The translations under genes were made by a program, and so were the position numbers. Below are positions 16,417 through 50,182 of a stretch of 64,000 nucleotides of DNA, in pieces (the stretch's first letter is position 1; the number at the start of each line of letters is the position of its first letter). Location of the stretch: positions 496,001-560,000 of the forward strand of contig OZ237748.1 in assembly GCA_965178125.1 (NCBI GenBank), read 5' to 3'. The stretch is from Bilabrum cf. latius. Taxonomy: Eukaryota. The notes beneath the pieces were generated by a model. It was not told the origin of the DNA and made no database searches. It worked only from the letters and a program-made list of their open reading frames with translations.

Positions 16417-16427
16417 GGGCATGGATC

Positions 16428-17655: not shown

Positions 17656-20600
17656 ATGTAAGTTAGAGACACATTATTGATGTCATAACGAAACTGTCGG
17701 TGCATCTCGAGTCCGATTCCTATTGATAGTAGGCTACGTAGGTTGCTGCTGCATCCTGCCAATCGTTGGTTGCTCGTCCATCGGTGGATCCTATCAGCAT
17801 GAGTGTAACTTAAGCGATCCAATCTTCACTGATATGGTTTCAAGAAGCTCACAGGGGAGACGCAATGCGAAGAGCTGCCAAGAATGGCAAGTTGGACGAC
17901 CTGAGGGCCTGCCTGGATTCGGGAACGGACATAGAATCGAAAGATATTGTGAGATCGAGTAGGACTGAAGGGATTTGCTGAGTTTCAATATTTTATGTTA
18001 AGTGGAATCGCTCGATGTATCCATGCGGGAGTTGTCATGGAGCAAACATGCAACCGGCCGTTGATCCATCGCGCGGGGGTGCTCAGTGAATCTCCCCGCT
18101 GAACTTGCTGTGTTGGCATGTGCCGACCATTGACACACATTTTCTGGTAGGTTGTTAAATATTTAGTCTCAGGAAGCATTCGCCTCTTGCCTATACTCCG
18201 TGGCACGGAGACCTGGCTGTCACCCCACCCGCCTGACCGGATGCATGCCATATCTTTCCGACGGCTGGGCAGAGGCGGCTACTAGTGAAAGGCCCCGTCT
18301 GCAATGCTGACTGATCAGATAGCTTGGTTAAAGAATCGTGGTAGCTTTGCATGCAGTCCCTTATGATCCCCTCAGCCGTCGGCCTATCGATCTCTTCATC
18401 AGCTTCCTCAGATCCCGATGGCTGCTGCCACTCACGGATAGCTGCACATGATTCGACAAATACATCCTCACACCGCAGGATGGTAGAACAGCAGCATATT
18501 GTGCAGCCTATGAAGGCAAAGCGGACTGTCTGAAGCTGCTCATTGAAAGGGGCGCCAACGTGGAGGTTGTAGATACTTCTATGTTTACTGTGAGAAAGAC
18601 AGGCTGCCTGCCCAACAGGGCGAATATGGTTTCCCAACAGATTTGCCGATATGCTGCGGCTGTAGCACGGTTGTTCAAGCCCCTGTATATGTATTACAGT
18701 TACACGATTAGTTTCTGATTCGGTCATCGTTTGGCGCCACGGCTGCCTCGTTCAACGGGTGGATCTCCGGCAGCTCTTTGCGGAAGCTGGTGCGCAGTGA
18801 CATTACGTTGTATCATTGTGTGTTTTGATCGTGTAAATGATTCTCTTTTGACTGGCGGCGGCCCCTTAGGAATGGGTAGGTCTACACATCATGACGATTG
18901 CTTCATCAGCATGCTATTTGGCGGCTCCAAGGTTGTATCCGGGATATTCCATTTGGCTGCAGTCTTCACCATACTGTTTGTGTCCGTTTAATTGGCTGCC
19001 ATGGCATCCCACTCGCTCCTCGTCGGTCGATCGAGCTGGGCCCCCGAGCAAGTACCCCCCGGTGACTGGCTAGGTCTCAATAGGAGGCGCAATTGTTATT
19101 GATGTCTTGTGAATGCGATCGATTGCATGTTGGTCTGATTTGACCATGCCAGTCTTCAAGTCTTTAGTCGAGGTTGTTCTGTAATTGATCAGCCCGCCCG
19201 GCTGGCCCACTAACGGTGCCAGCCCCCGCCCTTCCCCCTCCCTAACACTCCCAGCACCCGCCCCAGGCACACATCCACACGCACACCCTCTCCAATCATC
19301 ATCCACCCTGCTTCCTGCAACCCTTGTCTTTTATGCCCCCCATCACAGCTTGGCTACACACCTGTTCATGCGGCATCTGCGAATGGGCACAAATACTGCC
19401 TGGCTATGCTTATTGAAAATGGTGGTAACGTAAACGCGGTGGATGAGGTGAGAGAGCTTGATATCGAGGGTAGTAGTGGTCCTCTGTGTGTACTGTGTGC
19501 GCAGAATTTGTGTATCTGTCAGCTGGACACCGAATTGGCCGATCCCGGGTCCAATTGGGACTGTCTTGTCTGGAACAAGTAATGGTGGTTTTGAATGGAT
19601 TCATGGCAATAGATGTACAATTTGTTTGCTATTACTCTAATTGGATTGGTTTGGTACCGCTCACTAGCTCCACAGCTAGTGACGCGACCGCCGACCGTCA
19701 CCCCAGGGACACCTCGCCTATCTCAACCCCTAGGCACATGCAGAGGCCGGGCCCGGGTCCCTCTCGGTATGAAATCCCGCGATAGAACGATTATTGGATG
19801 TTTGGATGGGTTTCAATGTGTGTTATGTCGTACCTCCAGCGGTGGGATGCGCACGTCCCTGTGTGCGCTCCAAAGGCGCATATTCACTCCCACTGGTGCG
19901 CCCCCCGCCACCACCCACACCCAAATACTTGTTACAGGCACACGCACTCACATACATCCTCCGCTGGTTTCCCACCGCCGCAACGCAGGATGGCTGCACA
20001 CCCGTGCATGTGGCAACCGAAAACGGGTACCAGGACTGTCTGGCTATCCTAATTAAAAATGGTGGAGACTTGAATGCAATGAATGAGGTGAGGGAGAGAC
20101 ATTGAGGGATATATTGACCATACGTGTTGATTTGCTTGGTGGAAGCCTGCGTTTATCTGTTCGGCTTTGGACTGGCTGTGCCCTTGGCCGAGCACATCGT
20201 TGGCAGATATGTTGTAGATCTGTTGCATGGAATACACTTCAGTGGCAGCGTTGCAGCTCTCGAATTCATATTGATCGATGAACTGAGATGATCATGCTGC
20301 ATCACGCCCGGTCTGTACCATCCGATTCATCCGTAGGATGGAAACACTCCCCTTCACTTGGCAGCGGACTACGGCCGCACCGCCTGCGCCACTGTCCTCA
20401 TGAAGGCAGGGGCCCGCAGGGACATCAAGAATAGCGTAAGCGTCTGTATCTGCATGGCAGGAGGTCGTGATTCTTATTTTTCCATCATGCCGCCAAATGA
20501 ATTGACAAACCTTCGCATCAGCAATCAACCAAATACCTCTGATCCACCCCCCATGCATCCCCCCACACTACGCACCCTCTCTTTTGCCCATCTCCCTCGC

Positions 20601-20955
20601 TTCCTTGATTAAGTAGGTTAACTAGACTCCCGCCAAGATGGCAGAATGGTATAGACAACATGAGACCGCTGCCACCATCCGATCATTTATTACCTCTAGA
20701 GTGCGAAGAGCCATGTGCTGGAGGAGGGCAGTGGAGGCCAAGAGGGACGCTGGGATGGTGTTCCAGGCAGCAAGTGAGGGCAGGCCCATGGAGCTGGCAA
20801 AGAGGCTGAGGTTGGGCAAGCTAGCTGGTGGGTTGGAGATGAAGGGAAAAGCGGTGATTGATGATGGGACTTCTAGGCTGGTGCTTGCACTGGAGGCAGC
20901 CAGGCTGGGTGGGCACGACGATTGCGTGAAGCTGCTGCAGGAGGCCTAGGGCTGA
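17656..20955 (+). CDS. Ankyrin-repeat protein A3 (multi-exon)
   Basis: AT 17656-7|GTAAGT; exons start ~17855, 18479, 19349, 19989, 20337, 20617, each about one ankyrin repeat. TAG at 20623 and 20947, TGA 20953-5. Confidence 0.82.
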
Positions 20956-21678
20956 GGTCTAGTATGGAGCTTCCGCTGAAGGCAGCCCCGCACCATTGGC
21001 AAGGCAGGCACAGTCGCTGTTCCTGAAGAGCAGATAATGTGCCAACCCAGATCCATTTGCTTTGTCTCAGGTGAGAGAAGGAGAGAAGGTTGGACACAGG
21101 GTCCCAATGTGGTTCTTCGCGCATAGGGGGTCATCTCGTTGGCATACACTGGCGGGCGGCTACTGTTATACATACTTGGACATCAGGCTGGAAGCAGAGA
21201 TGAGTCGGAAGACGAGGTGGATACAGGCGGAGAGGAGGTGGAGAGGAACAATAGGGGGACGCCGGCAAAGGCGACGATAGTGCGGTGCCAATAGGGAGAA
21301 CGCAAGGAAGGGGAATCCAGGTGCCAGGCACAGAGGAGATGCGAGTGGCAGTTGGCAGCATTGCCAGCAAGCGCGCAGAGGGCCAATAGGCGGGTGGACA
21401 GAAGGGCCGCAACCTACTGCTGACCCTGGCGAAGCACCTCCTCAAGAGATCGAGCGCAGAGAGGATCCAGACGATCTAGCTGCACCACGACCCCACCATG
21501 GCGGGGCATAGGTGTTGGTGGATCATCATGCGTGAGCTCGGGAGCCTTGATGAGTGCCACAGAGATGAAGCCTTGGACGAGGGGCCGGCGCGAGATCTTC
21601 AAGGTGATGATGATGAGTGAATATAATGATACGACGTTTTCACTGTAAAGGCATTGGGTTGGCTGTGATATTTGATTT

Positions 21679-23889
21679 ATGTGAGATGATATACTTTGTG
21701 TGGGCATCATGATGCCCACTTCGTGTCTATCGATACCGTACCAACGGTAAATGTTGGACTTGGAATCGACGCTCGGTGGATCTCTCAGTCGATTCTATCC
21801 GCATGCGTATCTGGATGCCTAAGGCTTTAAATGAAAAACTCATGTTTATTTTCAACTACATAGGGGAGACGCACTTCTAGCGGCAGCAAAGGATGGTAAA
21901 GTAGATGACATGAGGGCATGCCTGGATGCGGGAACGGACATCGAATCCAAAGATACCGTGAGATTGAGTGTCATTGAATCGTTTTAAATACGACAGAATA
22001 TGTATTATATCGCTTCCCAAGACAAGGTACGACCTGTCGTAGAGCAAGCCACCTACTTGCTGTCAATCCGCCGATGGACTGTGCCGAGTGAATCTCTCCA
22101 CTGGGCGTGCTTTGTAGGCACCTGCTGACCAAAACCGGTAATTATTAGCATTTTATTCAAAGTCAACATGACAAATGGAAGTAGGTGCCTCCTAGACTGC
22201 AAACCGTGGCACCGACAGCTGCCAGTCGTCCCAAATGCCCTTCCCGGATAGGCCTACACAACGTGTTTCCGACAGCGAGTTAGACGGGGCGACTCACAGA
22301 AACTGCCGTCATGCTGGTTAATATTGCAATCAGTGTTGAGTCATGCAGTGCATTTGCCACCAGCTCCCTCACTGCGCCTCACCGAGTAGGCCTGTACATG
22401 CCCTCATTAGCTACCTCCTGTTCCCCTTGGCGTGCCTCCGTACCTACGGCACACAACTGACGGCTGTTCCGATGTAGGCACATATCCACGGCTGCTTGTA
22501 CATGCTTCGAACTTGCACTATAATACCGCAGGCAGACCGGACAGCAACATGGTGGGCCGCATGCAACGGCAAGACGGACTGCCTAGAGCTGCTCATCGAG
22601 AGGGGCGCCAACATGAACGCTGCCAATGAGGTGAGAGAGAGAGGCTGGTTGCATCCCCCCCCGCCCGGCTGGCCCACCTGGCTCCTCCTCGTGCTAGGTG
22701 GGGCAGGTGGAGCGGTGGCTCGAGGGATGCGGACGCACTGGGCTACGTACCCAGATTAGCGGCAAAGGTACTCAATGATATATCCATGCACTGATTTAGC
22801 TTTGCTTGTTGGAGGCTAGTATATTAGATCGGTGACAGCTCCCCAACGGGGGGACACCCCGGGCATGTTTAACGAGCATGTGTACGCCATTGGCTCCCGA
22901 GGCCCCTGACAGCCGCCGCATGCACAAGCACATACACGCAAATCTTGAGCTCCCACGCCCTGTCTTCCATTCCCCCCACCGCAGGAAGGCTACACACCCG
23001 CCCATGTGGCAGCTGGGTAGGGCCATAAAGAGTGCCTGGCTGTGCTTGCTAGAGGGGACGTGAATGCAGTGGATGATGTGAGAGTTTTGCAGAGAAAAGC
23101 TGGTGGCGAGCGTTTGTGTGCGTTGGATAGGTTTGTATGACTTAAAGGCTGCGGATGAGCTCCCAACGCTAGTGGCAAATTTGCTGCATGTGTCCAAGCT
23201 CGCAAGGACCGCCCAACCAATTGTTTGAAACCATGATGCTGCCTTATGCCATACCCACAATATCCGATTCATTCACAGGATGGAGACACTCCCCTCCACT
23301 GGGCAGCATCCAATGGGCATACCGCCTGCGCCAGCATCCTCATGGAGGCAGGGGCCCGCAGGGACATCAAGAACGATGTAAGCTTGCACAGCTGTTTCAT
23401 AACAGCACTTGAATCACATATATCCATCATGTTGCCCAATAATGACAGAGGCCTTCCCGCCAGCAATCGAACGATGACCGCCAATCCACCCCCGATGCCT
23501 TCCCCCAAACGCCCCCTTCTCTGCCCCTCTCCCTCGCTTCCTCAATCGAGCAGGATGGCTAGAGCCCTGCGGAAAGGGCAGAATTTGAGGACAAACACGA
23601 GACAGCTGCCGCCATCGGGTCATTCATTCCATCTCGAGTCCGAAGAGGCATGGTCTGGAGAAGGGCAGTTGAAGCCAAAAGGGATGCATCGATGGTGTTC
23701 CAGGCAGCTGTTGAGGGCAGGCCGATGGAGCTGGCCAGGAGGCTGAAGCTGGGCAAGCTGGCTGGTGGGTTGGAGATCAAGGGAAATGCGACGATTGAAG
23801 ATGGTGGTTCTAGGCTAGTTCTTCCACTGGAGGCAGCCAGGCTGGGTGGGCACGATGATTGCGTGAAGATGCTAGAGGAGGCCATCTGA
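21679..23889 (+). CDS. Ankyrin-repeat protein A4 (multi-exon)
   Basis: AT 21679-80|GTGAGA; exons start ~21864, 22532, 22985, 23279, 23554. TAG at 23018 (HVAAG*GH) and 23560 (DG*SPAE); ends TGA. Confidence 0.82.
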
Positions 23890-24143
23890 TAGACGATAGA
23901 TCTAGTGCGGGACAACAACGCATGACGGATCAATCCCAAAAGGATTGAGCTACGCAGGCTACGTAGCTGCTCGCTGAGGCTGAGGTGCGCAGTTCGAGGC
24001 GACGCGGAAGAGTTTTGGACACTGGATTTTCTCGCATTCAAATTCAATTTGACCCGAGCACGGTGCGGCTGCCGAAAGAAGAGAAGGGTTCATTTTTAGA
24101 GAACAGAAAGATCCGGATGCATGCGGAAGACACCCCGTTCCAA

Positions 24144-26397
24144 TCACATGACCTCGTAAGCTGGCCCGCCCCCTCCCGCCTCGGGCACAGTCCACTTGAT
24201 GTACTGCCCCGGGGTCTTGATGCTGCAGCACTTGCAGTGCACGCAGTTCTGCGCGTTGATGACGAGCTTCCCATCCTCCTCGGGGTACTCGTACACCCTG
24301 GCGGGGCAGAACCGTGACTCGGGCCCCTTGAATTTGGCCCAGGACAGCTGCTCGGGGTCGTCCTCCTGGCCCGGCTTGATCCTCAGGTGGGAGGGCTGGT
24401 CGTGCTCGTGGTTCGTCCCGCTTCGCTGGAGGTTCGACAGGAGGTCGAAGCTCAGCTTGCCGTCGGGCTTGGGGTACTCGATCTTCTCGCACTCGTCAGC
24501 GGGCTTGGTCTTCTGCGAGTCGGGCTTGTCGTTGTGGAAAGTCCACGGCTCGTTGCCCTTGAGCACAAACGCGCTCAGGCCCGAGTACGCCAATCCTGGA
24601 AGCAGTCCTTGCTTGAAAGAAGGGTGGTAGTTCCTGACTGCCTTGAGCTCGTCCACCACCCAGGAGGAGTCCACTGTTCCCTGATACTCGGTCACTTCCC
24701 GCCCCGCCTTGCTCGCGTCCTCACCCGCATCCAAGATGGCGGCAGCGGCCGACTCGCCCGCATACAGCCCAGTCTGCATGGCCATGTGGGACCCCTTGAT
24801 CTTGGGTACGTTGAGGAATCCAGCGGAGCACCCAGCCAGCATGGCGCCGGGCATGGTCAGCTTGGGGAGGGACTGGTACCCTCCTTCATTCAGACACCTG
24901 GCCCCGTACTGGATGCACTCTCCGCCGTCAAGGAACTTGGCGATCTCAGGGTGGTGCTTCCACCTTTGGAACTCCTGGTAGGGAGACATCCAGGGGTTGG
25001 GATAGTCCAGCCCGATCACGAATCCGATGAGAACGAGGTCAGGTTCCATGCAGTAGAGGAATGAGCCGCCGTACGTGTCCTGGGGAAGCGGCCATCCAAG
25101 CGTGTGCTGCACGTGCCCCGGCTTGAAGAAAGGGTGGTTCTCCGGATCCTTGACCCTCCACACCTCCTTGAGTCCCAGCCCGTAGGTCTGAGGATCCACG
25201 CCCTCCCTGAGGTTGAAGACCTCCATCGCCTCCTCGGAGCAGTTGCCTCTGCATCCCTCCGCTAGGACCGTCTGCTTGGCCCTGACCTCTGCGCCCAGGT
25301 AGAACGAGTCCTTGGGCTTGCCCTCTTTGTCCACCCCCATGTCACTCGTCACGACCCCCTTCACCCCCCCGTCCTCGACGATCAGGTTGGCAGCGGGATA
25401 GGCCGGGATGATCTCCACCTCCATCTCCTCCGCCTTCTCTCCCATCCACTTGCACAGCTGGCCCAGGCTGATGATGTAGTTGCCCTCGTTGTGCAGCATG
25501 GGCGGGACGGGCAGGGGCACGGAGCTCGAGTCGTTCAGCAGGAACTTGAACTCGTCCTCCTTCACCGGTGTCTTGATGGGGCAGGACTCGTCCTCCCTCC
25601 AACCAGGCAGCAGGTCGTCAAGGGCTCTGGGCTCGAACACGTTCCCGGAGAGGATGTGGGCGCCCACCTCTGCACAGGGAAGGAGGGGTAGGGGAACATG
25701 AAGTGCGATCGATTGGTGATAGGTAGGCTACTGGGGTGGGTGGGCACGTGCGCAGCTGTGGCTGGGCGGGCTCTGAAGCTGCCTCGGCAGCAGCAGTGCA
25801 GCGCAAAGTCTCTAGCGCAAACAGCCGGCATTCACACGTTGCAACAGGCGGTAGAAAAATGTCTAACATGCAAAACGAAGCATGCAGCTTGAACAGCACC
25901 CGACGCCAACCGATTGGGCTCAGAGGCATCGCATGCATGCGTGTCGCACTGCCACTCGAACCATAGGGCTAATCTTGGGAGAAAACCCAGAGTCTTTAGC
26001 ATGAACCAAATCTATTAATAACAAAAACGCCATGACCAGACCGATATCCAGGTCAGACTCGAAGAATGTGCCAAAGATAGCCGGATCACTCACCGTGGCC
26101 CTTTTCCAGAACGCAAACGCTGAGTTCCTTCTCCTATTTAGCAGCAACCTGCTTGGCACGAATGGCAGCAGCAAGACCAGCTGGGCCAGCACCAACGACG
26201 ACCATGTCGTATTCCATGACGTCCCGCTCGCCGTTCATGGGGTCTTCGTCTCGCGACGGAGCTGTTGAAGCGATCGACCGCGCTGAGATTGAAGGCCCCC
26301 ACTTGCGCTGGGGAAGTCGAAGCGCCCCGACCGATCTGCAAGCATTCTAAAAACGCAAAGGATTCGATCCGACTCGTCTGGCAATTCTAGCTAGCAT
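24144..26397 (-). CDS. ETFDH: Electron transfer flavoprotein-ubiquinone oxidoreductase, mitochondrial; complement(join(24144..25669,26094..26397))
   Basis: FAD motif YDMVVVGAGPAGLAAAIR. Splicing rebuilds EKGHEVGAHILSG. 4Fe-4S motif FCPARVYE...NCVHCKCC. Arg-rich presequence. In-frame TAG at 26347-9 and 26134-6; ends TGA. Confidence 0.96.
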
Positions 26398-26551
26398 GAT
26401 TCGCGCCCCAAGATGAGCGATCGGCAAGTGCGGCCAAAAGAAATAGCGAGGTTCCGCTGCGCGGCGGTGTTAAGTAGCGAGTACCTTTAACAATACTTTC
26501 GCGCTCCAGATGCTGGGTGTTTCACCGGATTTTCCCCGTTTTTTTCACGCA
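26398..26551. promoter_or_regulatory. Probable bidirectional promoter between ETFDH and SEC61B
   Basis: Only 154 bp between the two inferred divergent start codons. Confidence 0.55.
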
Positions 26552-27205
26552 ATGGTGAGTTGAGGTCGGCGTTCCTATCCATTTATGTGTTATCTCTATA
26601 TTGCGCGGATTGTGTGCCTGTTGATATCGTTTGGCACGTGTACGGCTCGGACACGTTGTTCTCGTCACAGTTTCTGCTGGCTCAACCGGCAATGTAGGAG
26701 TGTAGCAGTCTTGACTCGACTTTTATTGCCGGCTTAGTCCTATTTTGGTGCACAAAATAATGGCGATAGTCGCGGCGGCGTTGCCACTGACCGTGTGATT
26801 CCACAGCGCGGATGCACGAGCCGGTGCGACTGCTTCGCGTTTCTTTAATGTAATCTACCACGAGCATCCCGATTCTACCATCAGTTCATGCGTATGCATT
26901 CGTTCTTGTTCAATCCGCCGCAGAAGCCAGGATCTCGTCCCGGCAAGAAAGGAATCCGCCGCCGCAGAGGAGGCAAGGAGGGCGCGGCGGGCGGCGACGA
27001 GGACGCGGAGCACCGCCGGAGGGAGGCGGCCGAGGACCGGAAGGACGTGATGTCGGGGGTACAGCGAACAAACGCAGCCACTCACTACACGGCGGATGAC
27101 AGCGCCACGACGCTGAAGCTCGAGCCGCTGACCGTGGCCATCGGGGCGGGCGTGTTTGTCGTGTCCGTGGTAGTCTTGCACGTGGTCAGCAAGTTCTCGT
27201 CGTGA
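26552..27205 (+). CDS. SEC61B: Sec61 translocon beta subunit; join(26552..26554,26924..27205)
   Basis: HYTADDSATTLKLEPLTVAIGAGVFVVSVVVLHVVSK resembles the Sec61beta YTDD..GLK..P + TM + LH motif. ATG|GTGAGT...CCGCAG intron; ends TGA. Confidence 0.8.
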
Positions 27206-27581
27206 TGAGTCAAGATGGATAGGCGTGGATGCAAGGAGGGGGGGGAGAGGCTCCTAGCAGGCAGGAGACATGAGAGAGCGGTGTGCGTTCGGTGTGCGTG
27301 CGGTGTGCGCGCGTGCTTGACTTGTGGGGCTGCGCTAGAGGGGAGGGGAGGGGAGGGGGGTGTGATGTGTGAGTGACTGAACCGAGCAAAAACAAACACG
27401 GAAACAAAATCAAACGAATCGGAATGAACACTAGACCGAAAGAACCGTCACAACGCAAAGAAAACCGTGCAAACGCTCAAAATGCAGCCAGCCCTTAGTC
27501 TGGCAGTGGAGCCGGCATGCCTTCCTTGCCGTGGAGCCGGCTGGCCTCGTACCTTCCATCTGCCGATGAACCGACCACTCG

Positions 27582-28752
27582 TCACACCTCAGAGCGAGGC
27601 GGCAGCCAGTACTTCCGGACCGTCTTGCCCTCGCCCTTGCTGTCGCTCTCGCCCACAGAACCCGCTCCCGCCCCAGCTCCCGACCCAGCTCCAGACCCCT
27701 CTGATTCTCCAGCATCGGCGCCCACTACCACCACGAACCCGTCGACCTCCTCCTCGCCCGCACTCGTCACACCCGCACTCGTCACACCTTCAACCGCGCC
27801 GTCCTCGACCCACACGAAGCCCCCCAGCACCAGCTGCCTGAGTGCCTCCTGGGCCCGGGGCCTGGGCCAGCTGAGGGCGCCTGCCACCTGGTCTGCGAGG
27901 AAGGGGGGGGGGGTTGAGAGGGGGGGTGGAAATTGCGCTTCGAGGGCACGGGGAGAAGCAACGGAAAGAAGCAACGAAATGAGAGGCGCATCTATCCATC
28001 GATCGATCGATCGATCGATCGATCCATCAATTGCCTATTTCTTCTATCTCACCGACGGACCATCCCCACCTGCCCCCCGCAGCACCACCATTCCCTGCAC
28101 CCGGGGGTCTCCCGGTGAGCACCACCGCCGCCCTCTCCTAGTCAACGGATAGTTCCCGGGGAACACTCATCACAGCCTCGATGGACGCACCACCACCGCT
28201 GCTGCTGCTGCTACTGCTGCCTCTTCCCGATGCAGCTGCACCACCACTCCCTCCCCCGCTTTCCGCGCCGGTGCCGCTCAGCTTGACGATCCTCGCCCCG
28301 CCCCCCAGCTTGTCCAGCCCCTTCAACGCCGTCTTGACGTCATCACTCGTCACACCCCTGTCCCTGGCCCTCCTCGCGTTGATCATCGACACGAGCTCCG
28401 CCATTGGAAGAAGCCCGCCGTTGATTGGTCTCGTCCGCAGGCAGCAGTCGAGCACCTGCACGCCCAGCTCGTAGTAAAACTGACCGACTCCCAGGTTTCT
28501 CGCCCAGAATCCCCTTGAGCTCTGCAGCGGATCCACGCCGATCACGCTGCACATCGACGCGAACTCTCTGCGGAACACGGGATCCTTGGCGATGTCGTCG
28601 CTGTGCTTGGTAGCAAACTCCATGAGACCTTTCTAGAAAGTTTCCATGGCCCGCTCCATGTGCTCTGCCTGCTCTGCCATGAGCTTGGCGCCCTCCGCGG
28701 CGCGCTTGGCCTTGAGTTCTTGCTGCTCCCGAAGGCCGGCTCGACCAAGCAT
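27582..28752 (-). CDS. SNF8: ESCRT-II subunit Vps22/SNF8/EAP30; complement(join(27582..27892,28053..28752))
   Basis: EFATKH...DPVFRREFASMCSVIGVDPL, FYYELGVQ, SVPREL and C-terminal winged helix (LSWPRPRAQEALRQLVLGGFVWVED...YWLP). In-frame TAG at 28633-5 and 28138-40; ends TGA. Confidence 0.93.
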
Positions 28753-28941
28753 CGCTCACGATCGCTCGACCGCCGCAACCAGAAGTAGAATTAAAAGAGC
28801 GTAATGGCTGGTTGTGCGCAGAAACAAGTGCCGGTCTGCATTCGCCGAGCCAAAGAGTGGTAAAAATGGCTCGTGTGACGAGCTTGCTCTTGGCCGGCCT
28901 TTCCTGGCTCGTTGCTGGGCTCATTCGCTGATTGTTCGCGC

Positions 28942-30613
28942 ATGAGAATCTCAGATTCACGCAGATTAGTGCAGAGACTGGCGTGGTCCGCGCGCTGCCG
29001 GGTGCAGGCCGGGGTTAGGTAGCTTTCCGCCGCCGCGACAATTGGCCGCAGCTCATCGAAAGCGTCGGGCAGCAGCCGTCGAAGCACGGAGCAGCTCGTG
29101 GAGCAGCACCGATGCAACATCAAGCATATTAGTGGAAGCGTTCGTTCGCCGCCCCAGGCAGCGGGCCGGTGGAGACTTGGCGGCGGTTGCTCGCCTCGCC
29201 GGTTCCACACGTCAGCAGGCGCTCGGTTGTAGCGGACGAGCATCGCGTTGGAAAGAGGCGTCCGGCGCTCCGATAATGCTCTTGTGACATCCACGGGAGC
29301 ACGATCCGCCGGCGATTTGCAGGTCGGCGCCGCGCAAGCCATGAAGCCGACTGTGTTTGACGAGTACAACCTAGTCCAGGAAGACGCCACGAAATCGAGG
29401 ATCATGGCGATTGATGATTACGGGTTTCAGGTGAGCTGGATGAATTTTATTTCATGGGGTTAGGAGCGGGGGGGCGGCAGGGCGCGCATTTCTGCGCGCT
29501 ACGTTGGGGCAGGTTCAGGCTGCTGGTTGCTGGCTGCTGGTTGCAAGTTGCTGGTTGCTGGGGCGACCGACCGACCGACTAGGCCAGCAGGCAAGCTGGA
29601 ATGATGGAATGCTGGCATGCATGCTGCAGCAGAATCCGAGAGCAGAGCCACCCCGCCCCCCTCCTCCCCCCTCCCATTCGCCACACACGAGCATCCCCCA
29701 CCCCCCCCCAGTCGTCACTCGTCACTCCCCACTCGTCACACACGCGCAGGTGAACGGCAACCACCTCCGCGGCAGCGTCATCGTGTTCCCCACCTTTTCC
29801 CTCCTCTGGAAGGTCAACCACCTCGTCAAGATCACCCCCGAATCCCTCGTGCCCGTGCTGCTGCCCAAGCGCCCCCGGATCGAGTTCCTGGTGATCGGAT
29901 CAGGGCCCTCCCACGGGGTCATCAAGAACATCAACCCGGAGATATACGACTTCTTCTCCAGGCGGGGCGTGGCAGTCGAGGTCATGTCCACGGACCAGGC
30001 GGTCGCAACCTTCAACGTGCTGGCACAGGAGGACAGGCCCGTGGCTGCCGCCCTGTTGTCCAGGCAGCCCACCACCCCCAAGATGGCCTCGGCCTACACG
30101 AGGGGGGGAAGAGGTTTCGACCCGGAGGCCTACAAGCTCAGGAGCGCGGCACGGGCGGGGGCCGCCGAGGAGGCCGCGGCGCTGCTGGCGGGGAACAACT
30201 CGGGGAGTGATGGTCCCCCCGGGGCTGCAGCAGCCGGAGGAAGGGGGGGCACACCCCGGGTGGAGGAGGGGGGCCTGTTCGGCGGAGGAACGTTCGGCGC
30301 TGACGGGGGGGACAGCATCAGGGAATGGCTGGGGATGGAGAGCTCCGACCCAAGGGCATCAGGTGTGCACTAGGACGGCGAAAGTGCCACCAACCTGGAT
30401 GGCCTGGTGAAAAAAGGAGGCGGGGGTGGTGGTGATGGGCACGATGCCTTCACGGATTCCAGGGGGAGGGTCAGGGGCGCCGATACGCCCAGCAGGAAGA
30501 GGAAGAGGATGGCGCTGAAAGGGTCTCCCCCCAAATTCTACGCCAACAGGGGGGCAGGGGGTTACAAGAAGCCGCAGGAGGAGGACGGGCAGGACTGGGA
30601 GAAGAAGAGCTGA
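28942..30613 (+). CDS. NDUFAF3: Complex I assembly factor NDUFAF3 (Mth938/DUF498 domain); join(28942..29430,29750..30613)
   Basis: IDDYGFQ|VNGNHLRGSVIVFP, IEFLVIGSG, GVAVEVMSTDQAVATFNVLAQEDRPVAAAL. Mitochondrial presequence-like N-terminus. TAG at 29020, 29230, 30371; ends TGA. Confidence 0.87.
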
Positions 30614-31258
30614 GGCATGAGATGGACGGTGAAGGGGGGGGCGGGGGGGGGTACAAGAAGCCGCAGGAGGGGGACGGGCAGGACTGGGAGAAGAAGAGCT
30701 GAGGCATGAGATGGACGGTGAAGGGGGGGGCGGGGGGGGGTACAAGAAGCCGCAGGAGGGGGACGGGCAGGACTGGGAGAAGAAGAGCTGAGGCATGAGA
30801 TGGACGGTGAAGGGGGGGCGGGGGGGGTACAAGAAGCCGCAGGAGGAGGACGGGCAGGACTGGGAGAAGAAGAGCTGAGGCATGAGATGGACGGTGAAGG
30901 GGGGGGCGGGGGGGGTACAAGAAGCCGCAGGAGGAGGACGGGCAGGACTGGGAGAAGAAGAGCTGAGGCACGAGATGGACGGTGAAGGGGGGGGCGGGGG
31001 GGTACAAGAAGCCGCAGGAGGAGGACGGGCAGGACTGGGAGAAGAAGAGCTGAGGCACGAGATGGACGGTGAAGGGGGGGGCGGGGGGGTACAAGAAGCC
31101 GCAGGAGGAGGACGGGCAGGACTGGGAGAAGAAGAGCTGAGGCACGAGATGGACGGTGAAGGGGGGGGCGGGGGGGTACAAGAAGCCGCAGGAGGAGGAC
31201 GGGCAGGACTGGGAGAAGAAGAGCTGAGGCATGAGATGGACGGTGAAGGGGGGGCGGG
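30560..31258 (+). repeat. 87-89 bp G-rich tandem repeat, 8 copies, each containing the last codons and TGA of NDUFAF3
   Basis: TACAAGAAGCCGCAGG recurs at ~30563, 30652, 30741, 30828, 30916, 31003, 31090, 31177. Confidence 0.95.
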
Positions 31259-31526
31259 GCTGATACCGGGGGTGGTGCCTGTGAGTTATGCCACAAGGGC
31301 GCGTGCGCCTAGCGGGCGAATATTCCGATTGCTAAGACGTCCTGTGCCTATGTTTATTCTATGTCTATGTCTATGTCTATTCAACCGACCAAACTGCCCT
31401 GCTGCACCCAAAGCATCCCCATGCAATGCGGCATGCTTCCCATGCAGGCAGGAGGCATTGCATCCCCATGCCTCCCCCCTCCCTCTCCCCGATCATCTCC
31501 CGTTCCCCCTCTTTATCGCGATCGCT

Positions 31527-32055
31527 TTACCCCTTGAAGATGTTGATGACTTTCTTGGCGGTCCTCGAGTGCCTCGACATGACCTTGACGAGCTGCTGCC
31601 GGATGCTGCCCTTGACCTGGCGACGAGCGCGAATGGCCTCCGACCACTTGAACTGCGATTAAAAAAAAAAGGGATTGAGTGTATATGTACGTAATGCATC
31701 TTGGTGCATGGCAGCGTGCACTGCCAAGGGGGCTGCACACCACGAGGTCTAGAAACAATTACGTCTGCTACTCCTGGTCCATCGCGTCTCGGCAGCTCGT
31801 TCACCCGACTTGCGCACTCACAGATCCTGTTTTGTCAACGCACGCAGTTAAGACGTCACGCTGGTGCTGGCACTTGGAAATGTCGTCGTCTGACCTCTCC
31901 AGGCAGGCGAACAGCTCCTCCGTCTCCTGCGGGCAGGGCTGAAACCACTGGAAATCGCCCCCTGTCCCTGCATAGAACGAAACTGCTTTCTAGTGGTCCA
32001 TGTTCAGGTCCCTCCATCGAAATCCTCGCAATCCCTTGTTGTACTTGGCCGGCAT
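31527..32055 (-). CDS. Twin CX9C (CHCH) protein, probably mitoribosomal mS37/MRP10-like; complement(join(31527..31652,31822..32055))
   Basis: MPAKYNKGLRGFRWRDLNMDH*KAVSF...PCPQETEELFACLERSDDDISKCQHQRDVLTACVDK|FKWSEAIRARRQVKGSIRQQLVKV...IFKG. Canonical GTGAGT...TCGCAG intron, TAG 31990-2, ends TAA. Absent from the ORF track. Confidence 0.78.
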
Positions 32056-33023
32056 GATGGCCAGCGAATTGCTTGACTGTTTGGTCGACGAGCCGAGCTA
32101 CTGTTCGCTTCTCAACCTAGCTAAAAGCAAGCCACAGCTTGGATTTTTATGCAAATTAAAGTCTGTAGGCGTGAATCTCGCTACTAGAGCTGTGTTGTTG
32201 CAGTTTTGTCCGCGCGCGGTCTCGTGAGATTTGGCTGACGAGTGCTCACCAGTGTGGGATGGTGTGCAGTGGGTGTGGCCCGTGTTGTGGAGCGAGCGAG
32301 AATCGGGATTTAGCACGGATGGCAAAGAGGCCAAAAGCAAACACACTATTTCGTTCGAAAACTGATGTTTTTCGTTCAATTCTCGCGTTGATTTTGTTGT
32401 TGTTGCTGTTGCTCGGCAGGCCCCGGCGTCAGGTGCCGGCGCTGTGCCACGAGGGAAGCTCACCCCCCTCCCGTGGCACAGCACCGCCCTGCCCTCTCCG
32501 GTTCCGATCCAGCGGCATCATCCACGCATGCATTGCATGGTGGTGTTGGTGGTGCAGCACAGACGGCACGCCGCCAGTGCACACCACCGCCATCACCACC
32601 ATCATCGCAGAAACGCCGCTGCCGGCGGGTCGCGGGGAAAGGGCACGAAACACTCGTGCCTTTCCCCGCCGCGATCCAAAGCGATGAGACGAAAGAAGCA
32701 GCGGGGGAGGAAACACTATTCCCACCCCACCAAATTCTTCCCCGCCCCCCCAAAATCGAATCGCACCCAAACTCCGACGCCTGCACTCTCCCCCCGTGCC
32801 CAAAAAGAGGCACACGGGGAAGAGCGCCTGCAGACCGGTACCGGGACGCGCCCCCATTCACACCCCATCTACCCCAACAACCCCCCCCCCCCTGGGAGAG
32901 GGGAAATGAAGGGGAGGCATGGGATGAGAAGGGGACGCGCCCCGGCTCCATATCCTTGCAAGTGCGCGCGCGCGCGCGCACGCCATTCCAAATTCCACCA
33001 CCACGCACGCATCGCCTGCATGC

Positions 33024-33860
33024 TCAGAAGTAGATGGAGAAGGGGGGTCCCATGGTGCTCTTGATGATGAGCACCTTGATGTTCTGCCACCCCTTGCGCA
33101 GCTGGGAGGCGAGGAAGTTGGCGCCCTTGAGCACATTGGCCTCGATGTCCTCCTGCGACATGCCCACGTGTGCCACGGCCACGTTGATGGTGTTGCCCTT
33201 CTTCATCTGGTACTTGACGGTCAGCTTGGCCTCGTTCACCTTGTTCTCCACAGTGTCGGCGTTGGGGATCACGGTCGGGAACTTGCCGGCCTTGTTGAGG
33301 CCGGTGCCGATCAGCCTCGTCAGCTGGGTGATCACGGGCTGCGAAGCCAGGAACATGTCGTAGGACTTGGCCATCTTCTTGATGAGCTTCTTGTTCTTGT
33401 TCAGCTTCTTGAGGTCGGGCACGGAGCGGCAGTCCACGCCGAGGGCCTTGGCGTCACCGACGTGCTTCTCGGTTCCCAGCACGCAGAGCTTCATGTTGGG
33501 GCGGGGAGCCGCAACCATGGTCACGGTGCCGTTCACCTTCTTGTCCTTCTTCTTGTCGAAGCCCTTGATCACGGCCTGCATCTCGATGGTCTCCACGAAC
33601 TTGCGCTGCTTGCCGGCCTTGCTCTCCTTCACGGTCTCGCCCACCTTGTGGCGGTACGGGATCTCCTCGCCCTTGCTGAAAGCAAGCATACGAGTGATTG
33701 CGGACTTGAGCACATCAGCGGGGATCTTGGAAGCCCTGCGGTTGTTTGAGAAGCGTAGAAGCACACGGGTTTCCAAAATATGCAGCAATCTCACGATATG
33801 ATCATCCACCACGAGTATCAATCAACGCGATTTATAAATAATTAATATAGTTGCTTACAT
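33024..33860 (-). CDS. RPL10A: 60S ribosomal protein L10a (uL1); complement(join(33024..33735,33859..33860)), ATG split by intron
   Basis: RKFVETIEMQ, LKKLNKNKKLIKKMAKSYDMFLAS, GLNKAGKFP, GWQNIKVLIIKSTMGPP. AT|GTAAGC...CCGCAG|G GCT TCC AAG gives MASKIP; ends TGA. Confidence 0.95.
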
Positions 33861-34169
33861 TTTTCCTGATACTACTTTATTTTCTTGGAGCCGAGCAAGC
33901 CTGCCGAGAACTATGGGCTGGAGCAGTTTGTGGTTGGGATCGGATCATCACCCGGACGATGTGATGAGTGCTCATGCAATCCGGAGTCCACCGCATCGGA
34001 TCACAGATTTGTCCACCGTCCAGGATTCCAAGGAGGTATACAAGTCTAGCTCTCCATCTGATTATATTTATTCGGCAATTGAACATTGGTAGTACGCAGA
34101 TTTGAGGCGTCCATCACATCTGCCCAAACTGCCAGTCGTTGACAAGATCGGGAAAACCAGCACTTCACG

Positions 34170-36181
34170 ATGTCGAACGTTTGGAGCATGATCTGCAACC
34201 TGATGGTTGAGCATTATGATTTGAATGTAGCAAAGGAGTTTGATGTATTTGGCGGAACACTAATCAGCCGGCGAAGTTTCGGCGACGTGTGCAACAGGTG
34301 CGGATTCTCGCAGACGAATCGGCAGCTGCAGGTGGCGGAGCATTTCCTGCAGGCCATCGCCAATGCACGAGTGCGAGGTGAAGCCGACACGCAGAAAGAA
34401 CTCTAGCATATCATCCGATACTGCCTCACGGCATTCTGTAAGGTAACTGGTGTATTCTCTCAGTGGCAAGCAGCCTCGAGCGGCAGGCTGCCTCCCGGAT
34501 TCCCGACCTACAGGGAATGGCGTAGGCTGAAGCCGTTCAATGGAACGGGTCAATGTCCCACAACGCACGTCCTCTCTGAAAGCGCCGTGTGTGTAATTCT
34601 GGACGACCCCCGCAACAACACCACGAGCGACCGGGGGCAGGCATGGGGCGAGAGATGCGTCATGAGGGGAGACAGCCAAAGAAGGAGGCCACTGCCAGGC
34701 ACCACTGAGGGGAGGGGAGCAGCCGCACGACCGCGTGGGGGCTAGCTAGCGGTAGGGGAGGGGCGAGCGGCAGGTGGAGGCAGGCACTAGTCCACGGTGG
34801 ACATGGTGGCGCCCATTCTACTGCAATCGACTGCTTTTAAATAGGCTGCAGCAATTGCGGGGGTACCAATCGCACCGACGGCCCAATCGTTCACCAGCGG
34901 TGCGTCAGGCACCGTCGACTCGGACTCTTCTACACAGCGAGGAACCCTACCGCAGTCCGGAAGAAACCAGCCGACGCAGGCTGCTGCAGCTAGTACTACC
35001 GGGCTGGAAGGCGACAGTGACGAGGAGGACGATATGGTGCGGGAGACTGCGGCAGAGAGAGAGGAGCGGCTGTGGAGGGACGCAGTTCCAGACGTGCAGA
35101 TGATGAAAATCCGGCTGCAGCAAGGGGCCGACATCAACCACCGGTTCAGCACCGTGAGATCAATCCAAAAGAGATCAATCAAACGCGTTTCCGTACTCGC
35201 AACGTGCGCGCGAGAGCTTCGATATGGTATACTTTGAGCTCCTGGTCCTGACATTCATGATCAATAAAGACTATCGCAGACCGGTGGAACTCTGCTGCAT
35301 CCCGTTGTTATGACGCATTCTGCGTATGCTGCAGCGTTCTTGGTCGAAGCAGGAGTCCAGTACTGGGTCAAAGACCGGGTGAGAGGTGCCTGACATGCGC
35401 TTGCAAACTGCTTGCTGTGTGTGGTTAGGTTGAGTGCATCTACTGACAGCTACATGCAAGCTTCTATAAGGATTTATACCAGCCGAATGTCTTGGCCTCC
35501 CAGGATGGACAATCGGCAATTCAACTTGCCGAGCAGCTCGAAGACGAGCACGTGATGGGACAGATACGGGCAAGCATCCGAAGGCGAAAAATCCGAAGCC
35601 TGCTACTGTGGAAACGAGCGCACCTGGCGCAGAAAGACGCCAATCTTGTGCTCTTGGCCGCTGCGAACGGATGGCCCATGGAGCTCGCGAAGAGACTGAG
35701 GCTGGGCAAGCTCGTAGGGTCGTATTCCACGATTGGTCGGCTGCAAGCAGGACCACCCAGGGAGCTGATCCGATGCAGCCCGCTAGATGCAGCGCGTCTT
35801 GGAGGGCACAGGGAGTGCGCGAGTCTCCTGAGATAGGCGCTGAAAGCAGATCCTTGTGCGCGGGGGCTGGAGGCGACTGCGTGTCGCCCTGAAGCAGCAC
35901 GATTGCCTTGCTCTTGGATTCTGCTCGACGAGCGCGTTCGCCAGTGGGAGCGCAGGGTGCTTCCCATGGGCTTGCAGGTGTGGACCGTGCCGTATGCGAT
36001 CCCCACACCAGAAGGTGTAGATGCACATGCTGGCAATGGCAAAGGCCGACAGGAGGATCAGGGATCGTCTCGTGGAGAGGAGCAAGGGTAGACTGTGGCA
36101 TGGGAGGCGGATGCCATGTGGGCCCAGCTGTCTGAGAATTGGTTCGAGGGGAAGGACCGGGGCAAAGCCGTGCGTGATTGA
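34170..36181 (+). CDS. Ankyrin family B1: unrecognised Cys/His N-terminal domain, linker, ankyrin repeats, RLRLGKL module, C-terminal extension; exons ~34170-35153, 35280-35378, 35504-36181
   Basis: Exon 1 is open for 984 nt if its four TAGs are sense (no TAA/TGA). Collinear with paralogue B2. Further TAG at 35834 and 36089; ends TGA. Confidence 0.78.
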
Positions 36182-36637
36182 TAGATCAATCTATGTGTGA
36201 CGCTGAATACCAGGACCACTTGCTGAGAAGGACAGTGGACCAGGTTCATGAGCATAGCAGGTGCTGCTGTACGGACGCAGGTGCAAATGCATGCTACTAG
36301 CAGCTGATCTTCGTGACACAAGTGATATCCAACAGATAATCTAAAGCTAGTCTCGCTGACGTGCATTGGCACAACTTATTCGAATAATGGATTGTCTGAG
36401 AACCTGGCAACCAATCCGGAATCCGGATTCCGGATGCTGTCCAATCTAGTGGGTGTGATGAGTGGCTGGTGAAAGAGCCCAATTTGTCCATGCAATCGAT
36501 ACCAGGACCATACTTACTTGTTGAGTATACAATCACAGAAGCAGCTGTATATATCCAGTTGTAGCATGTTAACACAAGCTAGTGCTTGGACTGGTACATT
36601 GTATCAAAATTTGCAGAGCACTGGCAGAGATCGTAGC

Positions 36638-38762
36638 ATGAACAAGTCGTATGTCTGGAACATGATCCTAAACCTCTCAATCGAGCACCTGTCGCAAAAC
36701 CGCAGCGTAGTGCAAGAATTTGAAGTTTTCGGCGGAACGTTGGACGCACCGGTTCCGTTCAAAATTGTTTGCGGCAGATGTGGATTCTCACAGACATCCA
36801 GGACGGAGAAGGTAGCACTCCATTTCCTGCAAGCCATCGCAAATGCTAAAATGCGAGGAGCAAACGTTGTTCATACTGAGCTCAAACACATCATCAGGTA
36901 CTGCCTCACGGCGTTCTTCAAGGTATCCGGGACATTTTCGCAGTTGGAAGCAGCCTCGAGCAGCGGGCTGCCTGTAGGATTCCCAACGTACCGGGAGTGG
37001 GTTCAGCTGAAGCCATATAGGGATTTCGGCCAGTGTCCGATCACGCATGTTCTGTCCGAGAGTGCTATCCGTATTTACTTCGGAGACGAGTAGCAAAACC
37101 TAGGGCACGGGGCACTGCTCAGGCGAGAGGCCGCGCGCACCAGTCCGGCCTCATCAGACACGGATGCTGTGGCTGGGCTCCTCCTCGAGTCTCCCACGTT
37201 CAGGAAGGTACTTGGACTGATAATGTCCGCTGAGAATATGCCGGCGACTGCTTGGGATAGAGCCCCTGAGGAGCGCAGTGGAGCTGCGATACGGATGGCA
37301 GGGGTCGAGCCTGAATCTGAGTCTACGATGAGCGCGCCAATGGGATCATGCCTTTCAAGAAGTTCTGCAAGAAGCATGAGTCGGAGCAGGAGCCAAAGCG
37401 CTAGCCGGAGCAGCGTTGAGGCCAGCGATGACAGCAGCGATGACAGCAGCGATGACGACTCGAGCAATCAGAAGGGCGGCAATCAGCTCGAGCCCGAGTC
37501 TGAGGAGTGCTTGATGGAACGGCTATGGCCGATGCGGAGAGACAGCGGCAAGAGTAAGGAGGAAACGGACCAAGTGCGAGAGGACAGGCGATGGATGAAG
37601 GCATGGCCAGATGAAGATAAGCTGAAGAAAAGGCTAAAGCGCGGGGCCAATATCAACCATCGCTTCACAATGGTGAGTTCAATACACTTTGGCTGTATTT
37701 GATTACCATCGCCAGGCACAAGTCGCTCGGCCATATGATGCCGTTACTTGGAGCAGTTGAACGTCTGAATGAGCGATATTTGTCTGCCTGGACGTAGTTG
37801 TGCTTCCTAAGCATTCTGTGCTGACTAAAACCGCAGACTGGTGGCACCTTGCTGCATTTGGCCGCAAATTGCGGCAAACTTGCTATACTAGATTTTCTCT
37901 TTTCGGCAGGAATTCAGCATTGGATTAAAAATCGCGTGAGACGTATACATTCAGTCCGGATCAGACTGGTCTGCACAGTTCGATGCACCAGCCAAAGTTT
38001 TGTCTAATTGTTCCTATAACAACTCTGTTGTTAGCATAGCATGTGATCAGCAGGTACTCGATTCGCATGTCTCTCGCGCAGGATGGCCTCACTGCACTTG
38101 AGCTTGCGCGCACCCAGCGAAACTCTCTGACCGCCCGACGTATAGAGGCCAAGGTACGCCAGCAGAAAATCCACGCGATGCTGCGGTAGAGGCGGGCGCA
38201 CGAGGCCAGCAGGGACACGAGTTTCATTTTCACAGCCGCTGCGAACGGATGGCCCATGGAACTAGAAAAGAGACTGAGGCTGGGCAAGCTGGCGGGGGGG
38301 CTCAGAATGTGCGGCTGGTTGTAGACAGCGAAAGGGCAGCTGATCAGCTGCACACCTTTAGAGGCTGCTCAGCTTGGTGGCCATGAGGAGTGCGAGAAGA
38401 TTATCCAAAATGCTCTCAATCAGACGTCTCACAAGGCGGCACTGTGTAGGCGGACTCAAGTGCATCACCCCCGCCTATGCCGATTGCCTTGCTCTTGGAT
38501 TCTGCTCGACGAGCGCGTTCGCCAGTGGGAGCAGAGGGTGCTTCCCATGGGCTTGCAGGTGTGGACCGTGCCGTATGCGATCCCCACACCAGAAGGTGAA
38601 CATGCACATGCTGACAATGACAAAGGCCGACAGGATGATAAGAGATCGTCCAGTGGAGAGGAGCAAGGCTACAGCGTGGCATGGGAGGCGGATGCCATGT
38701 GGGCCCAGCTGTCGAAGAATTGGTTCGGGGGGAAGGACCGGGGCAAAGCCGTGCGTGATTGA
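36638..38762 (+). CDS. Ankyrin family B2, tandem paralogue of B1; exons ~36638-37672, 37837-37935, 38082-38762
   Basis: Same domain order and intron positions as B1. TAG at 37091, 38187, 38322; ends TGA. Confidence 0.76.
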
Positions 38763-39115
38763 TAGATCAATCTATGTGTGACGCTGAATACCAGGACCAC
38801 TTGCTGAGAAGGACAGTGGACCAGGTTCATGAGGAGTCCAGGCGCTGGACGAACTCGGTCGGAGATTAATGCTCTAGTCGGGGAAGGATCTTGTGATCGA
38901 CTGGCGAGGTGCTATTCCAGTTGGAGTCTACACTGGGGAAAAAGAGAGATCAGCCTCTGCGCTAGGCAGGATTAGCAAAGAAATACAGAAGCAGCCTAAG
39001 CCAGTAGCTTTCTTCTCTGGCACGGCCTGCGACGCCAAGATGCGCTGGAAGCTCTGGGCACAACGACCAGTCCACAGCTGAATTCAGATGAGTCGCAGGC
39101 CCAATCCACATCCAT

Positions 39116-39720
39116 TCACATGAACTTCGCGTCTCTCAAAATATCCTCCGCCTTGTAGTGCCCGCGTATACTCAAGCTACTTCGCCATGCAGGCTCCATA
39201 CGCCTGGCATACTCGTTCAAAACCGCTCTCCAATAGCACATGATGCCTGAGAATGTTAGATATTCGTGAGCAAACCGAGCTGACGCCTGTGCCATAGCCT
39301 GTGCTTCCGCAGGGTGACCCTGCAGGTACGTGATAGCCTCACTCACGTTGCAAAGGCTTGCAGTCTAGCACGCGAACGGCATAGAGTGCTTGTATGGCTC
39401 GAGACCCACGTGGTACCACTCTCTACATTTAGAATTTTCGATAAGTACTGTAGATCCTGAGCCGAGGATCTTCTGTAGTCGATAGCTGTAGGTATTCCCC
39501 CCCGTGTGGATGAGGTACTTCCAGTAAGCTTCCTGTGGGACCTTCTCATCGCAGTTCCCTTCCCCCCGCGTCGTCCGCGCTATCATCGTTTCCTTCTGCT
39601 ACTTCCTCGTCGAGCTGATCCTGTCTGTCGAGTTCGTCTCGTCCCCTCCAGCGCACGGCACTCGACCGTCCAGCTCCCTTGGCCACTTGCTGCCCCACTC
39701 CCGCTGCCGGCTCCTTCGTC
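39116..39720 (-). CDS. Glycosyltransferase family 90 (CAP10/POGLUT-like) C-terminal portion; 5' part not resolved, possibly a pseudogene fragment
   Basis: WKYLIHTGGNTYSYRLQKILGSGSTVL...EWYHVGLEPYKH...AITYLQGHPAEAQAMAQ...FAHEYLT...CYWRAVLNEYA. TAG 39365-7 joins ORFs 39365..39586 and 39116..39346 in frame; ends TGA. Confidence 0.7.
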
Positions 39721-39754
39721 TTCTACCTTGTATACTTCTGCTTCTGCTTCTACT

Positions 39755-50180: not shown

Positions 50181-50182
50181 CC

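Follow-up and report, generated by a model that had tools for sequence, protein, structure and literature searches.

Does TAG still act as a stop codon in the nuclear genes of the organism whose DNA is presented above, and if not, which amino acid is it read as? The question is raised by a window of 64,000 nucleotides (positions 496,001 to 560,000 of contig OZ237748.1, assembly GCA_965178125.1, Bilabrum cf. latius; all positions below are those of the window), where TAG codons stand in frame within well-conserved genes, among them those for electron-transfer flavoprotein:ubiquinone oxidoreductase (ETFDH) and for SNF8/VPS22, a component of the endosomal sorting complex required for transport II (ESCRT-II). 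An earlier note, made from the letters of this stretch, had taken TAG for a sense codon, most likely specifying Gln. Because TAG is kept in spliced transcripts, aligns without gaps to orthologous residues and is the only stop triplet found in a census of coding frames, it is concluded here, with a probability of about 0.87, that TAG is indeed a sense codon in expressed and conserved nuclear genes. Gln likewise stands as the leading reading of this codon, albeit not with the strength implied by the note, as Gln and Lys turn out to be close and the more distant paralogues have conserved Glu, Lys or Trp at several of the TAG positions.

The sense reading is carried in part by single-copy genes (Table 1). 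The ETFDH gene contains one TAG in its presequence (26347-26349) and another (26134-26136) between the flavin adenine dinucleotide (FAD)-binding motif and the SVCV block, where 102 homologues align gap-free within a strongly conserved block, the flanking columns being occupied by K in 93, Q in 97, S in 84, V in 99 and C in 95 of them. Both in-frame TAGs of SNF8 (28633-28635 and 28138-28140) are found inside blocks conserved among 81 homologues, with the preceding residue being F in 78 and D in 77 of these sequences, respectively. Moreover, the solved human and yeast SNF8 proteins align straight through the first TAG, and the Gln that the note had given for yeast Snf8 is confirmed there in an alignment covering this first site only. 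Three more TAGs are in frame with the NDUFAF3-like gene, two of them (29020 and 29230) located 5' of the domain and the third (30371) in a low-complexity C-terminal extension. As the transcript contigs begin practically at the sole ATG upstream of 29020 and 29230 (at 28942), these two possibly belong to the 5' untranslated region; the note was right about their frame, but its counting both as coding sites is doubtful. In the exon for a twin-Cx9C (CHCH) protein, the ATGs available upstream of the CHCH domain all precede the TAG at 31990-31992, and comparison with solved structures revealed a weak likeness to the mitoribosomal protein mS37 (E 0.65-0.68) that leaves the TAG outside the matched part. 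The FG-GAP repeat membrane protein carries its TAG (13057) between a Ser/Pro/Thr-rich stalk and a C-terminal hydrophobic stretch predicted to be a membrane anchor, and one more is present in the exon for a glycosyltransferase of family 90 (GT90). Neither the CHCH nor the GT90 exon had a match in NCBIfam. The gene for ribosomal protein L10a (RPL10a), which served as TAG-free control and as lineage marker, and the GH43 hydrolase gene are both without TAG. Altogether, the eight gene models outside the ankyrin family discussed below comprise 3175 codons with 10 in-frame TAGs, and each of them is terminated by TGA at a position matching the end of its homologues.

The state of these codons in transcripts was followed in public sequencing runs, 11 of which contain the stretch. 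Contigs of four (X1, X5, X6 and X8) were compared over positions 22800-30540; X8 (share 0.28) covers 17 of 30 bins, mostly with pieces of 90-95%, and nothing is drawn from it. The DNA-like run X1 gives a single contig of 6754 nucleotides over 23839-30540, showing no differences and retaining the introns of ETFDH, SNF8 and the NDUFAF3-like gene. Contigs of X5 and X6, derived from two studies other than that of X1, skip all three introns, each being bounded by GT..AG on the gene strand, and the resulting joints, such as 25669>26094 in ETFDH, are absent from X1. A further GT..AG joint in an ankyrin gene (23077>23279) is likewise seen in transcripts of X5 and X6 only. At none of the seven TAGs of ETFDH, SNF8 and the NDUFAF3 frame do the spliced contigs carry another letter, and the sequence differences listed in any run are confined to 23313-23396. 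Hence, these TAGs stand unaltered in spliced RNA. Assembly error, editing and splicing out, among the ways in which the note had thought its reading could fail, are accordingly contradicted by unchanged TAGs in the contigs of X1, X5 and X6, and mini-introns containing the TAGs were rejected, as the codons are kept in spliced contigs. That X5 and X6 represent RNA is inferred from their intron-less contigs together with a very uneven depth, which within the compared positions is as low as 2.6 between genes and as high as 1010 on a small transcript. X5 includes, in addition, an unspliced contig across the ETFDH intron (25641-26123) at about 5% of the spliced depth (9.4 vs 176-186), possibly derived from pre-mRNA or from traces of DNA. 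The small transcript (26933-27333), lying between ETFDH and SNF8, has the top depth of the compared positions (1010 in X5, about 210-240 in X6) and bears a plus-strand open reading frame ending in a hydrophobic tail, Sec61-beta-like by eye but unmatched in Pfam and NCBIfam.

A few points weigh against the sense reading or limit its reach. None of the 11 public runs containing the stretch is listed as RNA, and among the run-kind labels, which are program guesses, X5 is given as 'RNA? (probably DNA)'. As rare variants are dropped from contigs, partial editing at the TAGs may have escaped notice. Finally, the whole of the evidence for a sense codon comes from one 64-kb window.

The largest sample of TAGs is provided by a family of ankyrin-repeat genes with one repeat per exon, conserved phase-0 splice sites and introns beginning with GTGAGA or GTAAGC, the longer copies ending in a motif that by eye is WW-like, without Pfam match (16141-16413 and 49752-50039). 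As a six-frame all-against-all blastp crossed introns, the census was instead performed by exon-wise tblastn. In 40 exon copies comprising 2082 codons, 16 TAG are in frame, while TGA and TAA are completely lacking; read off-frame as a control (frames +1 and +2), these exons contain 104 TGA, 24 TAA and 36 TAG. All 12 stops within the tblastn matches are TAG, and no frameshift was found in the ankyrin exons. Under a model of nonsense mutation, a TAG share of 0.46-0.47 would be expected from the codon usage of the family, and the outcome observed would have a probability of 0.47^16, or about 6e-6. Extended to the single-copy models, the census shows neither TGA nor TAA within 5257 codons, bearing out the note's statement that intact models lack them, and its figure of about 30 TAGs compares with 31 counted here in supported coding frames plus four in doubtful stretches (39599, 34743, 34788 and 34842). 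These 31 are made up of 10 in non-family models, 16 in ankyrin exons E1-E5, three in extra or WW exons (16081, 49917 and 49848) and two in the 34143/36473 gene pair; codon and context were checked at 24 sites, and all TAGs that had been pointed out are present and in frame. TAG accounts for 0.3% of codons in single-copy genes and 0.8% in the ankyrin family. The base following TAG at 24 sites is A in 11, G in nine, C in three and T in one, with no common downstream motif. Consequently, a leaky-stop or read-through context was rejected, no context being shared after TAG, as was recoding of the pyrrolysine or selenocysteine type, given many sites in unrelated genes without such a context.

Regarding the amino acid, Gln is considered probable from comparison with the residues aligned to TAG. 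The clearest individual sites (Table 1) are those with close counterparts. A homologue of the GT90 exon found among 1.84 billion representatives (P0339, 86% identical) has Q opposite TAG 39365, with 17 of 20 flanking residues identical. TAG 55069 is opposite CAG in the copies at 16952 and 47135 (local identity to the nearest paralogue 0.95; Q in two of nine paralogues), TAG 49848 opposite Q in the copy at 16141 (local identity 0.80) and TAG 38322 opposite CAA in the copy at 35504, in agreement with the pairs of TAG with CAG and CAA which the note had picked out. Q also predominates in the column of the second SNF8 site (45 of 78, followed by H with 19 and then S, A, K, D and E). Scored as odds over background, a BLOSUM mixture favours Q (0.44) over K (0.27), R (0.17) and E (0.12), profiles learned from the window's own sites for Q, K, E and other residues yield Q 0.60, K 0.36 and E 0.03, and a nearest-homologue model arrives at Q 0.97-0.999.

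Against Gln stand, first, a number of individual sites, four of which the note had already listed as caveats and which proved to be real: TAG 38187 is opposite W (TGG) in nine of nine paralogues, 48452 opposite TGG, TGT or TTT, 41926 opposite E (GAG or GAA) in seven of nine, and 34404 opposite K within a strongly conserved block. E also faces TAG 35834 in five of nine paralogues, and K faces 23560/20623 in four of eight. Second, the three orthologue columns alone place K, R and Q about level, and the same BLOSUM mixture used as emissions gives E 0.68 and K 0.24. Third, in a fixed-tree LG+G likelihood calculation over 20 TAGs in six alignments, K came first, with log-likelihoods (lnL) for E, R and Q lower by 6.4, 7.0 and 7.8, respectively; correcting these for LG frequencies (20 x ln frequency) lifts Q about 1.4 above K, which amounts to a toss-up. 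Fourth, the nearest homologue agrees with any single residue at no more than four of 21 TAG sites. For true Q, K and E codons, the nearest homologue has the identical residue at 0.37, 0.61 and 0.59 of sites, and the shortfall of the TAG sites is mild for Q only.

The strongest rival to Gln is that UAG specifies Lys, or with less likelihood Glu, through a tRNA(CUA) descended from tRNA-Lys(CUU) or tRNA-Glu(CUC), and this remains unlikely but has to be taken seriously. Besides leading the tree likelihood, Lys is the top residue for the pair of SNF8 sites taken together, the column of the first one being filled by R in 50, K in 26 and Q in three of 79 residues. The orthologue columns are polar and variable, that of ETFDH 26134 containing K in 21, T in 17, R in 12, Q in 11, A in 10, S in eight and N in six sequences. 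The lead of Lys in the tree is lost, however, after the frequency correction, the raw likelihood leaning to common residues because uninformative sites reward amino-acid frequency. At the four sites best conserved locally, it is Q and not K or E that occurs in the close homologue and the nearest paralogues, and a Lys or Glu codon would be expected to find about 60% matches in nearest homologues, while three of 21 were seen. Glu, favoured by the paralogues of 41926 and 35834 and by the emission-type score, is nearly missing from the three orthologue columns (0/79 and 2/78 in SNF8, 1/96 in ETFDH), and with Glu, position 17 of the ETFDH presequence would be acidic, whereas presequences of this kind are usually devoid of acidic residues. 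Taken singly, Lys is accordingly regarded as rather unlikely and Glu as most improbable. To our knowledge, Lys has not been reported as the meaning of UAG in any nuclear code. Leu and Ser are clearly disfavoured by the alignments: Leu lies far below the best residue in all identity tests (summed lnL about -18 in the tree calculation), and is found in 0/79, 0/78 and 3/96 of the orthologue residues, and Ser is 9.2 below the best.

A further alternative to a dedicated Gln codon, considered improbable, is that UAG has no tRNA of its own and is read by near-cognate tRNAs as a mixture of residues by virtue of a blind eRF1, or that it is dual, specifying a residue within genes while still terminating close to mRNA ends, the situation in ciliates whose codes depend on context. 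No single residue fits the TAG sites well, these are unusually poorly conserved, and for the most part the residue opposite TAG has a codon one step away from it (12 of 21 sites: Q 4, E 3, K 3, W 1, S 1). TAG is moreover found two codons before TGA in two family copies (20947 and 50189), a point that also weighs against the sense reading proper and from which a residual stop role may follow. Mixed decoding is at odds, on the other hand, with TAGs inside structured, conserved blocks of essential enzymes, and the sample is far too small for showing heterogeneity. A dual role is called for by none of the eight non-family models, as none of these needs TAG as stop, and no other checked model ends unambiguously in TAG. 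TGA is the main stop, terminating every well-defined gene and also both WW exons, the GT90 exon and two ankyrin copies. Two further copies of the ankyrin family (16952 and 54874) are terminated by TAA. From the ratios of A-ending to G-ending codons in the ankyrin family (CAA/CAG 10/22, GAA/GAG 45/89, AAA/AAG 35/72), about eight in-frame TAA are expected if TAA had the same meaning as TAG; since not one was seen, TAA is not a sense codon. It is probably still a stop, a statement that is limited by relying on two family copies and on absence from one window. As far as this window shows, the reassignment is therefore restricted to UAG.

That the TAGs are untranslated, as pseudogene nonsense, assembly errors, edited or spliced-out sites, can be dismissed as very remote: given the codon usage, nonsense mutation would yield TAG more often than any other stop, and the copy with TAG 38187 is possibly decaying, but contigs from three studies, whether DNA-like or spliced, agree letter for letter at the TAGs, the genes are spliced and expressed, frameshifts and in-frame TGA or TAA are absent, and 16 of 16 family stops are TAG. 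The copy in question (38082-38417), where TAG 38187 replaces an invariant Trp and a second TAG is present, may be decaying even under a variant code.

If UAG is indeed a Gln codon, it would be decoded by a tRNA with anticodon CUA that could have arisen from tRNA-Gln(CUG) by one anticodon change, and recognition of UAG by eRF1 would be lost or weakened, both by analogy to every known case. ARAGORN predicted no tRNA gene in the 64-kb window. TAG might have re-entered genes through point mutation at sites tolerating a polar residue, as it is rare, poorly conserved and mostly opposite residues one codon step away.

The DNA itself is of nuclear type, with a GC content of 0.53-0.62 per 4 kb and spliceosomal introns, and an organellar origin was rejected because the genes hold spliceosomal GT..AG introns. 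In searches for protein homologues, the closest named relatives are stramenopiles, at an identity of just 50-64% including RPL10a: Cafeteria, Aplanochytrium, Mucochytrium and oomycetes for ETFDH, Heterococcus, Ascophyllum and Phaeothamnion for SNF8, and Mucochytrium, Hondaea, a pelagophyte and diatoms for RPL10a. A single-gene tree of ETFDH places the query beside Cafeteria without meaningful support. The sole plant matches for ETFDH and RPL10a reach 49% and 39% identity. RPL10a is unusually divergent, not exceeding 57% identity to anything beyond its own close relatives, and has an N-terminal insertion of about 20 residues in common with the homologue P0219. With P0219 being 97% identical and the fragment P0229 86%, close relatives are evidently present in public data, and the protein collection that contains this 97% match to the TAG-free RPL10a gave no close match for ETFDH or SNF8. 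Among the matches listed (at least 80 loci) from an RPL10a scan of metagenome contigs, all are at most 55% identical, the contig behind P0229 not being one of them, and none was used.

Provided that the residue is Gln, the present case works like the nuclear codes in which UAG alone was turned into a Gln codon, the assignment given in NCBI table 15. As listed in the sources used here, this group comprises Iotanema spirale (Fornicata) and the ciliates Protocruzia tuzeti, Hartmannula sinica and Trochilia petrani (PMC5304391, PMC11687900). Common to these and to the window are a sense UAG occurring in frame at modest frequency and UAA and UGA as stops. The present organism differs in being GC-rich, in possessing spliceosomal introns and in carrying genes for aerobic mitochondria (ETFDH, NDUFAF3), and, going by its nearest named relatives, it belongs neither to the fornicates nor to the ciliates; Gln is here, besides, the leading reading only. 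UAG-only codes with Leu are described for the rhizarian exLh (Sainouroidea) and for three TARA phyllopharyngean ciliates (PMC5304391, PMC11687900). They resemble the present one in the UAG-only change with UAA and UGA as stops, and the TAG-free RPL10a may be compared with exLh, whose ribosomal-protein genes avoid UAG (PMC5304391). In contrast, Leu is strongly disfavoured here, and UGA ends nearly all genes, whereas those of exLh end mostly in UAA (56/71). The green alga Scotinosphaera, another non-ciliate with a UAG-only change, uses UAG for Ser and keeps UAA as stop (PMC11687900); unlike there, Ser fits poorly here, and the relatives of ETFDH and RPL10a are not green algae. The oligohymenophorean ciliate PL0344, with UAA as Lys and UAG as Glu (PMC10553269, PMC11687900), demonstrates that both residues can be assigned to former UAR stops. 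It has, however, both codons as sense, while TAA is never in frame in the window, and Glu is a poor fit to the orthologue columns. An assignment of UAG to Lys does not appear in the sections of PMC5304391 and PMC11687900 used here. Among the titles and abstract starts surveyed, no UAG reassignment is reported for a stramenopile nuclear genome. An independent case, as suggested by the note, is plausible, with stramenopiles being the closest named relatives and the organism neither Leu-coding nor ciliate-like. A bolder proposal, tentatively put at somewhat below even odds, is that of an independent and evolutionarily young UAG-only change in a lineage not known to have a variant nuclear code, represented by a fast-evolving, GC-rich, aerobic protist with stramenopiles as nearest named relatives, in which UAG would so far be infrequent and restricted to sites that tolerate it; in its boldest version, UAG would be Lys.

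Table 1. Genes and exons of the window discussed in the text, with gene structure and in-frame TAGs
Feature	Position	Strand	Pfam match	Coding sequence, intron and stop	In-frame TAG
ETFDH transcript	23833..26414	-	ETFQO_UQ-bd, Fer4_ETF_QO, FAD_binding_2	26397..26094 + 25669..24147; 609 codons; one GT..AG intron 25670-26093; TGA 24144-24146	26347-26349, 26134-26136
SNF8/VPS22 (ESCRT-II) transcript	27401..28930	-	EAP30 1.3e-38	28752..28053 + 27892..; 336 codons; intron 27893-28052; TGA	28633-28635, 28138-28140
NDUFAF3-like (DUF498) gene	28943..30613	+	DUF498 1.8e-24	intron 29428-29746; TGA 30611-30613	29020, 29230, 30371
Twin-Cx9C (CHCH) protein exon	31801..32049	-	CHCH 2.3e-07	TGA	31990-31992
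FG-GAP repeat membrane protein	10564..13446 (also listed as 10399-13443)	+	FG-GAP 4.4e-30	960 codons; TGA	13057
GT90 exon	39116..39535	-	Glyco_transf_90 4e-19	TGA	39365-39367
RPL10a, second exon	33024..33731	-	Ribosomal_L1	235 codons; TGA	0
Four tandem ankyrin-repeat genes	13900..23889	+	Ank		14847, 16081, 20623, 20947, 23018, 23560
Divergent members of the ankyrin family and duplicated gene pair (34143-35234 / 36473-37699)	34143..42300	+			34404, 35834, 37091, 38187, 38322, 41926, 42076
Three further ankyrin-repeat genes	47100..57100	-			48452, 49848, 49917, 50189-50191, 50492, 51930, 52795, 55069

The genes of the window that could be named by Pfam are those for the FG-GAP membrane protein, ETFDH, SNF8/EAP30, the NDUFAF3-like DUF498 protein, the twin-Cx9C protein, L10a and the GH43 hydrolase, together with the GT90 exon and many ankyrin-repeat exons, while no Rfam match was obtained for the 64 kb. 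SNF8 and the NDUFAF3-like gene, on the minus and plus strand, respectively, meet head to head at 28811-28961 with their transcript contigs starting about 10-30 bases apart, an arrangement that suggests a common bidirectional promoter. At the 3' end of the NDUFAF3-like coding sequence begins a tandem repeat of 87 bp (eight copies, 97% alike, 30549-31259), each unit repeating the last codons of the gene plus TGA, so that C-terminus and stop are duplicated downstream. Other tandem repeats are a 43-bp unit in 27 copies (7646-8814), a 36-bp unit within the Ser/Pro/Thr stalk of the FG-GAP protein (12087-12607) and, beside GH43, a 63-bp unit in 15.5 copies (44671-45644) which is proline-rich in several frames. 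Within the first 7000 positions, a unit of about 1.31 kb is repeated in tandem about five times, with families of open reading frames recurring at that spacing in all frames and having no domain matches. Toward the other end, satellite arrays of 325 bp (six copies, 96% alike, 57642-59599) and 128 bp (28 copies, 87% alike, 60409-64000) follow, the latter showing strong AT skew and extending to the end of the window.

Few changes are known that split UAG from UAA in meaning, the sources cited above naming one fornicate, one rhizarian, one green alga and several ciliates (PMC5304391, PMC11687900), and such splits bear on the question of why both codons usually change together. A non-ciliate case in an aerobic protist that is rich in GC, has ordinary introns and is already represented by a genome assembly would, if true, be a further independent data point, and it would open the suppressor tRNA and eRF1 to direct study. 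The low frequency of TAG and the poor conservation of its sites would offer a handle on how a freed stop codon re-enters genes. For the organism itself, gene callers applying the standard code will truncate many of its proteins.

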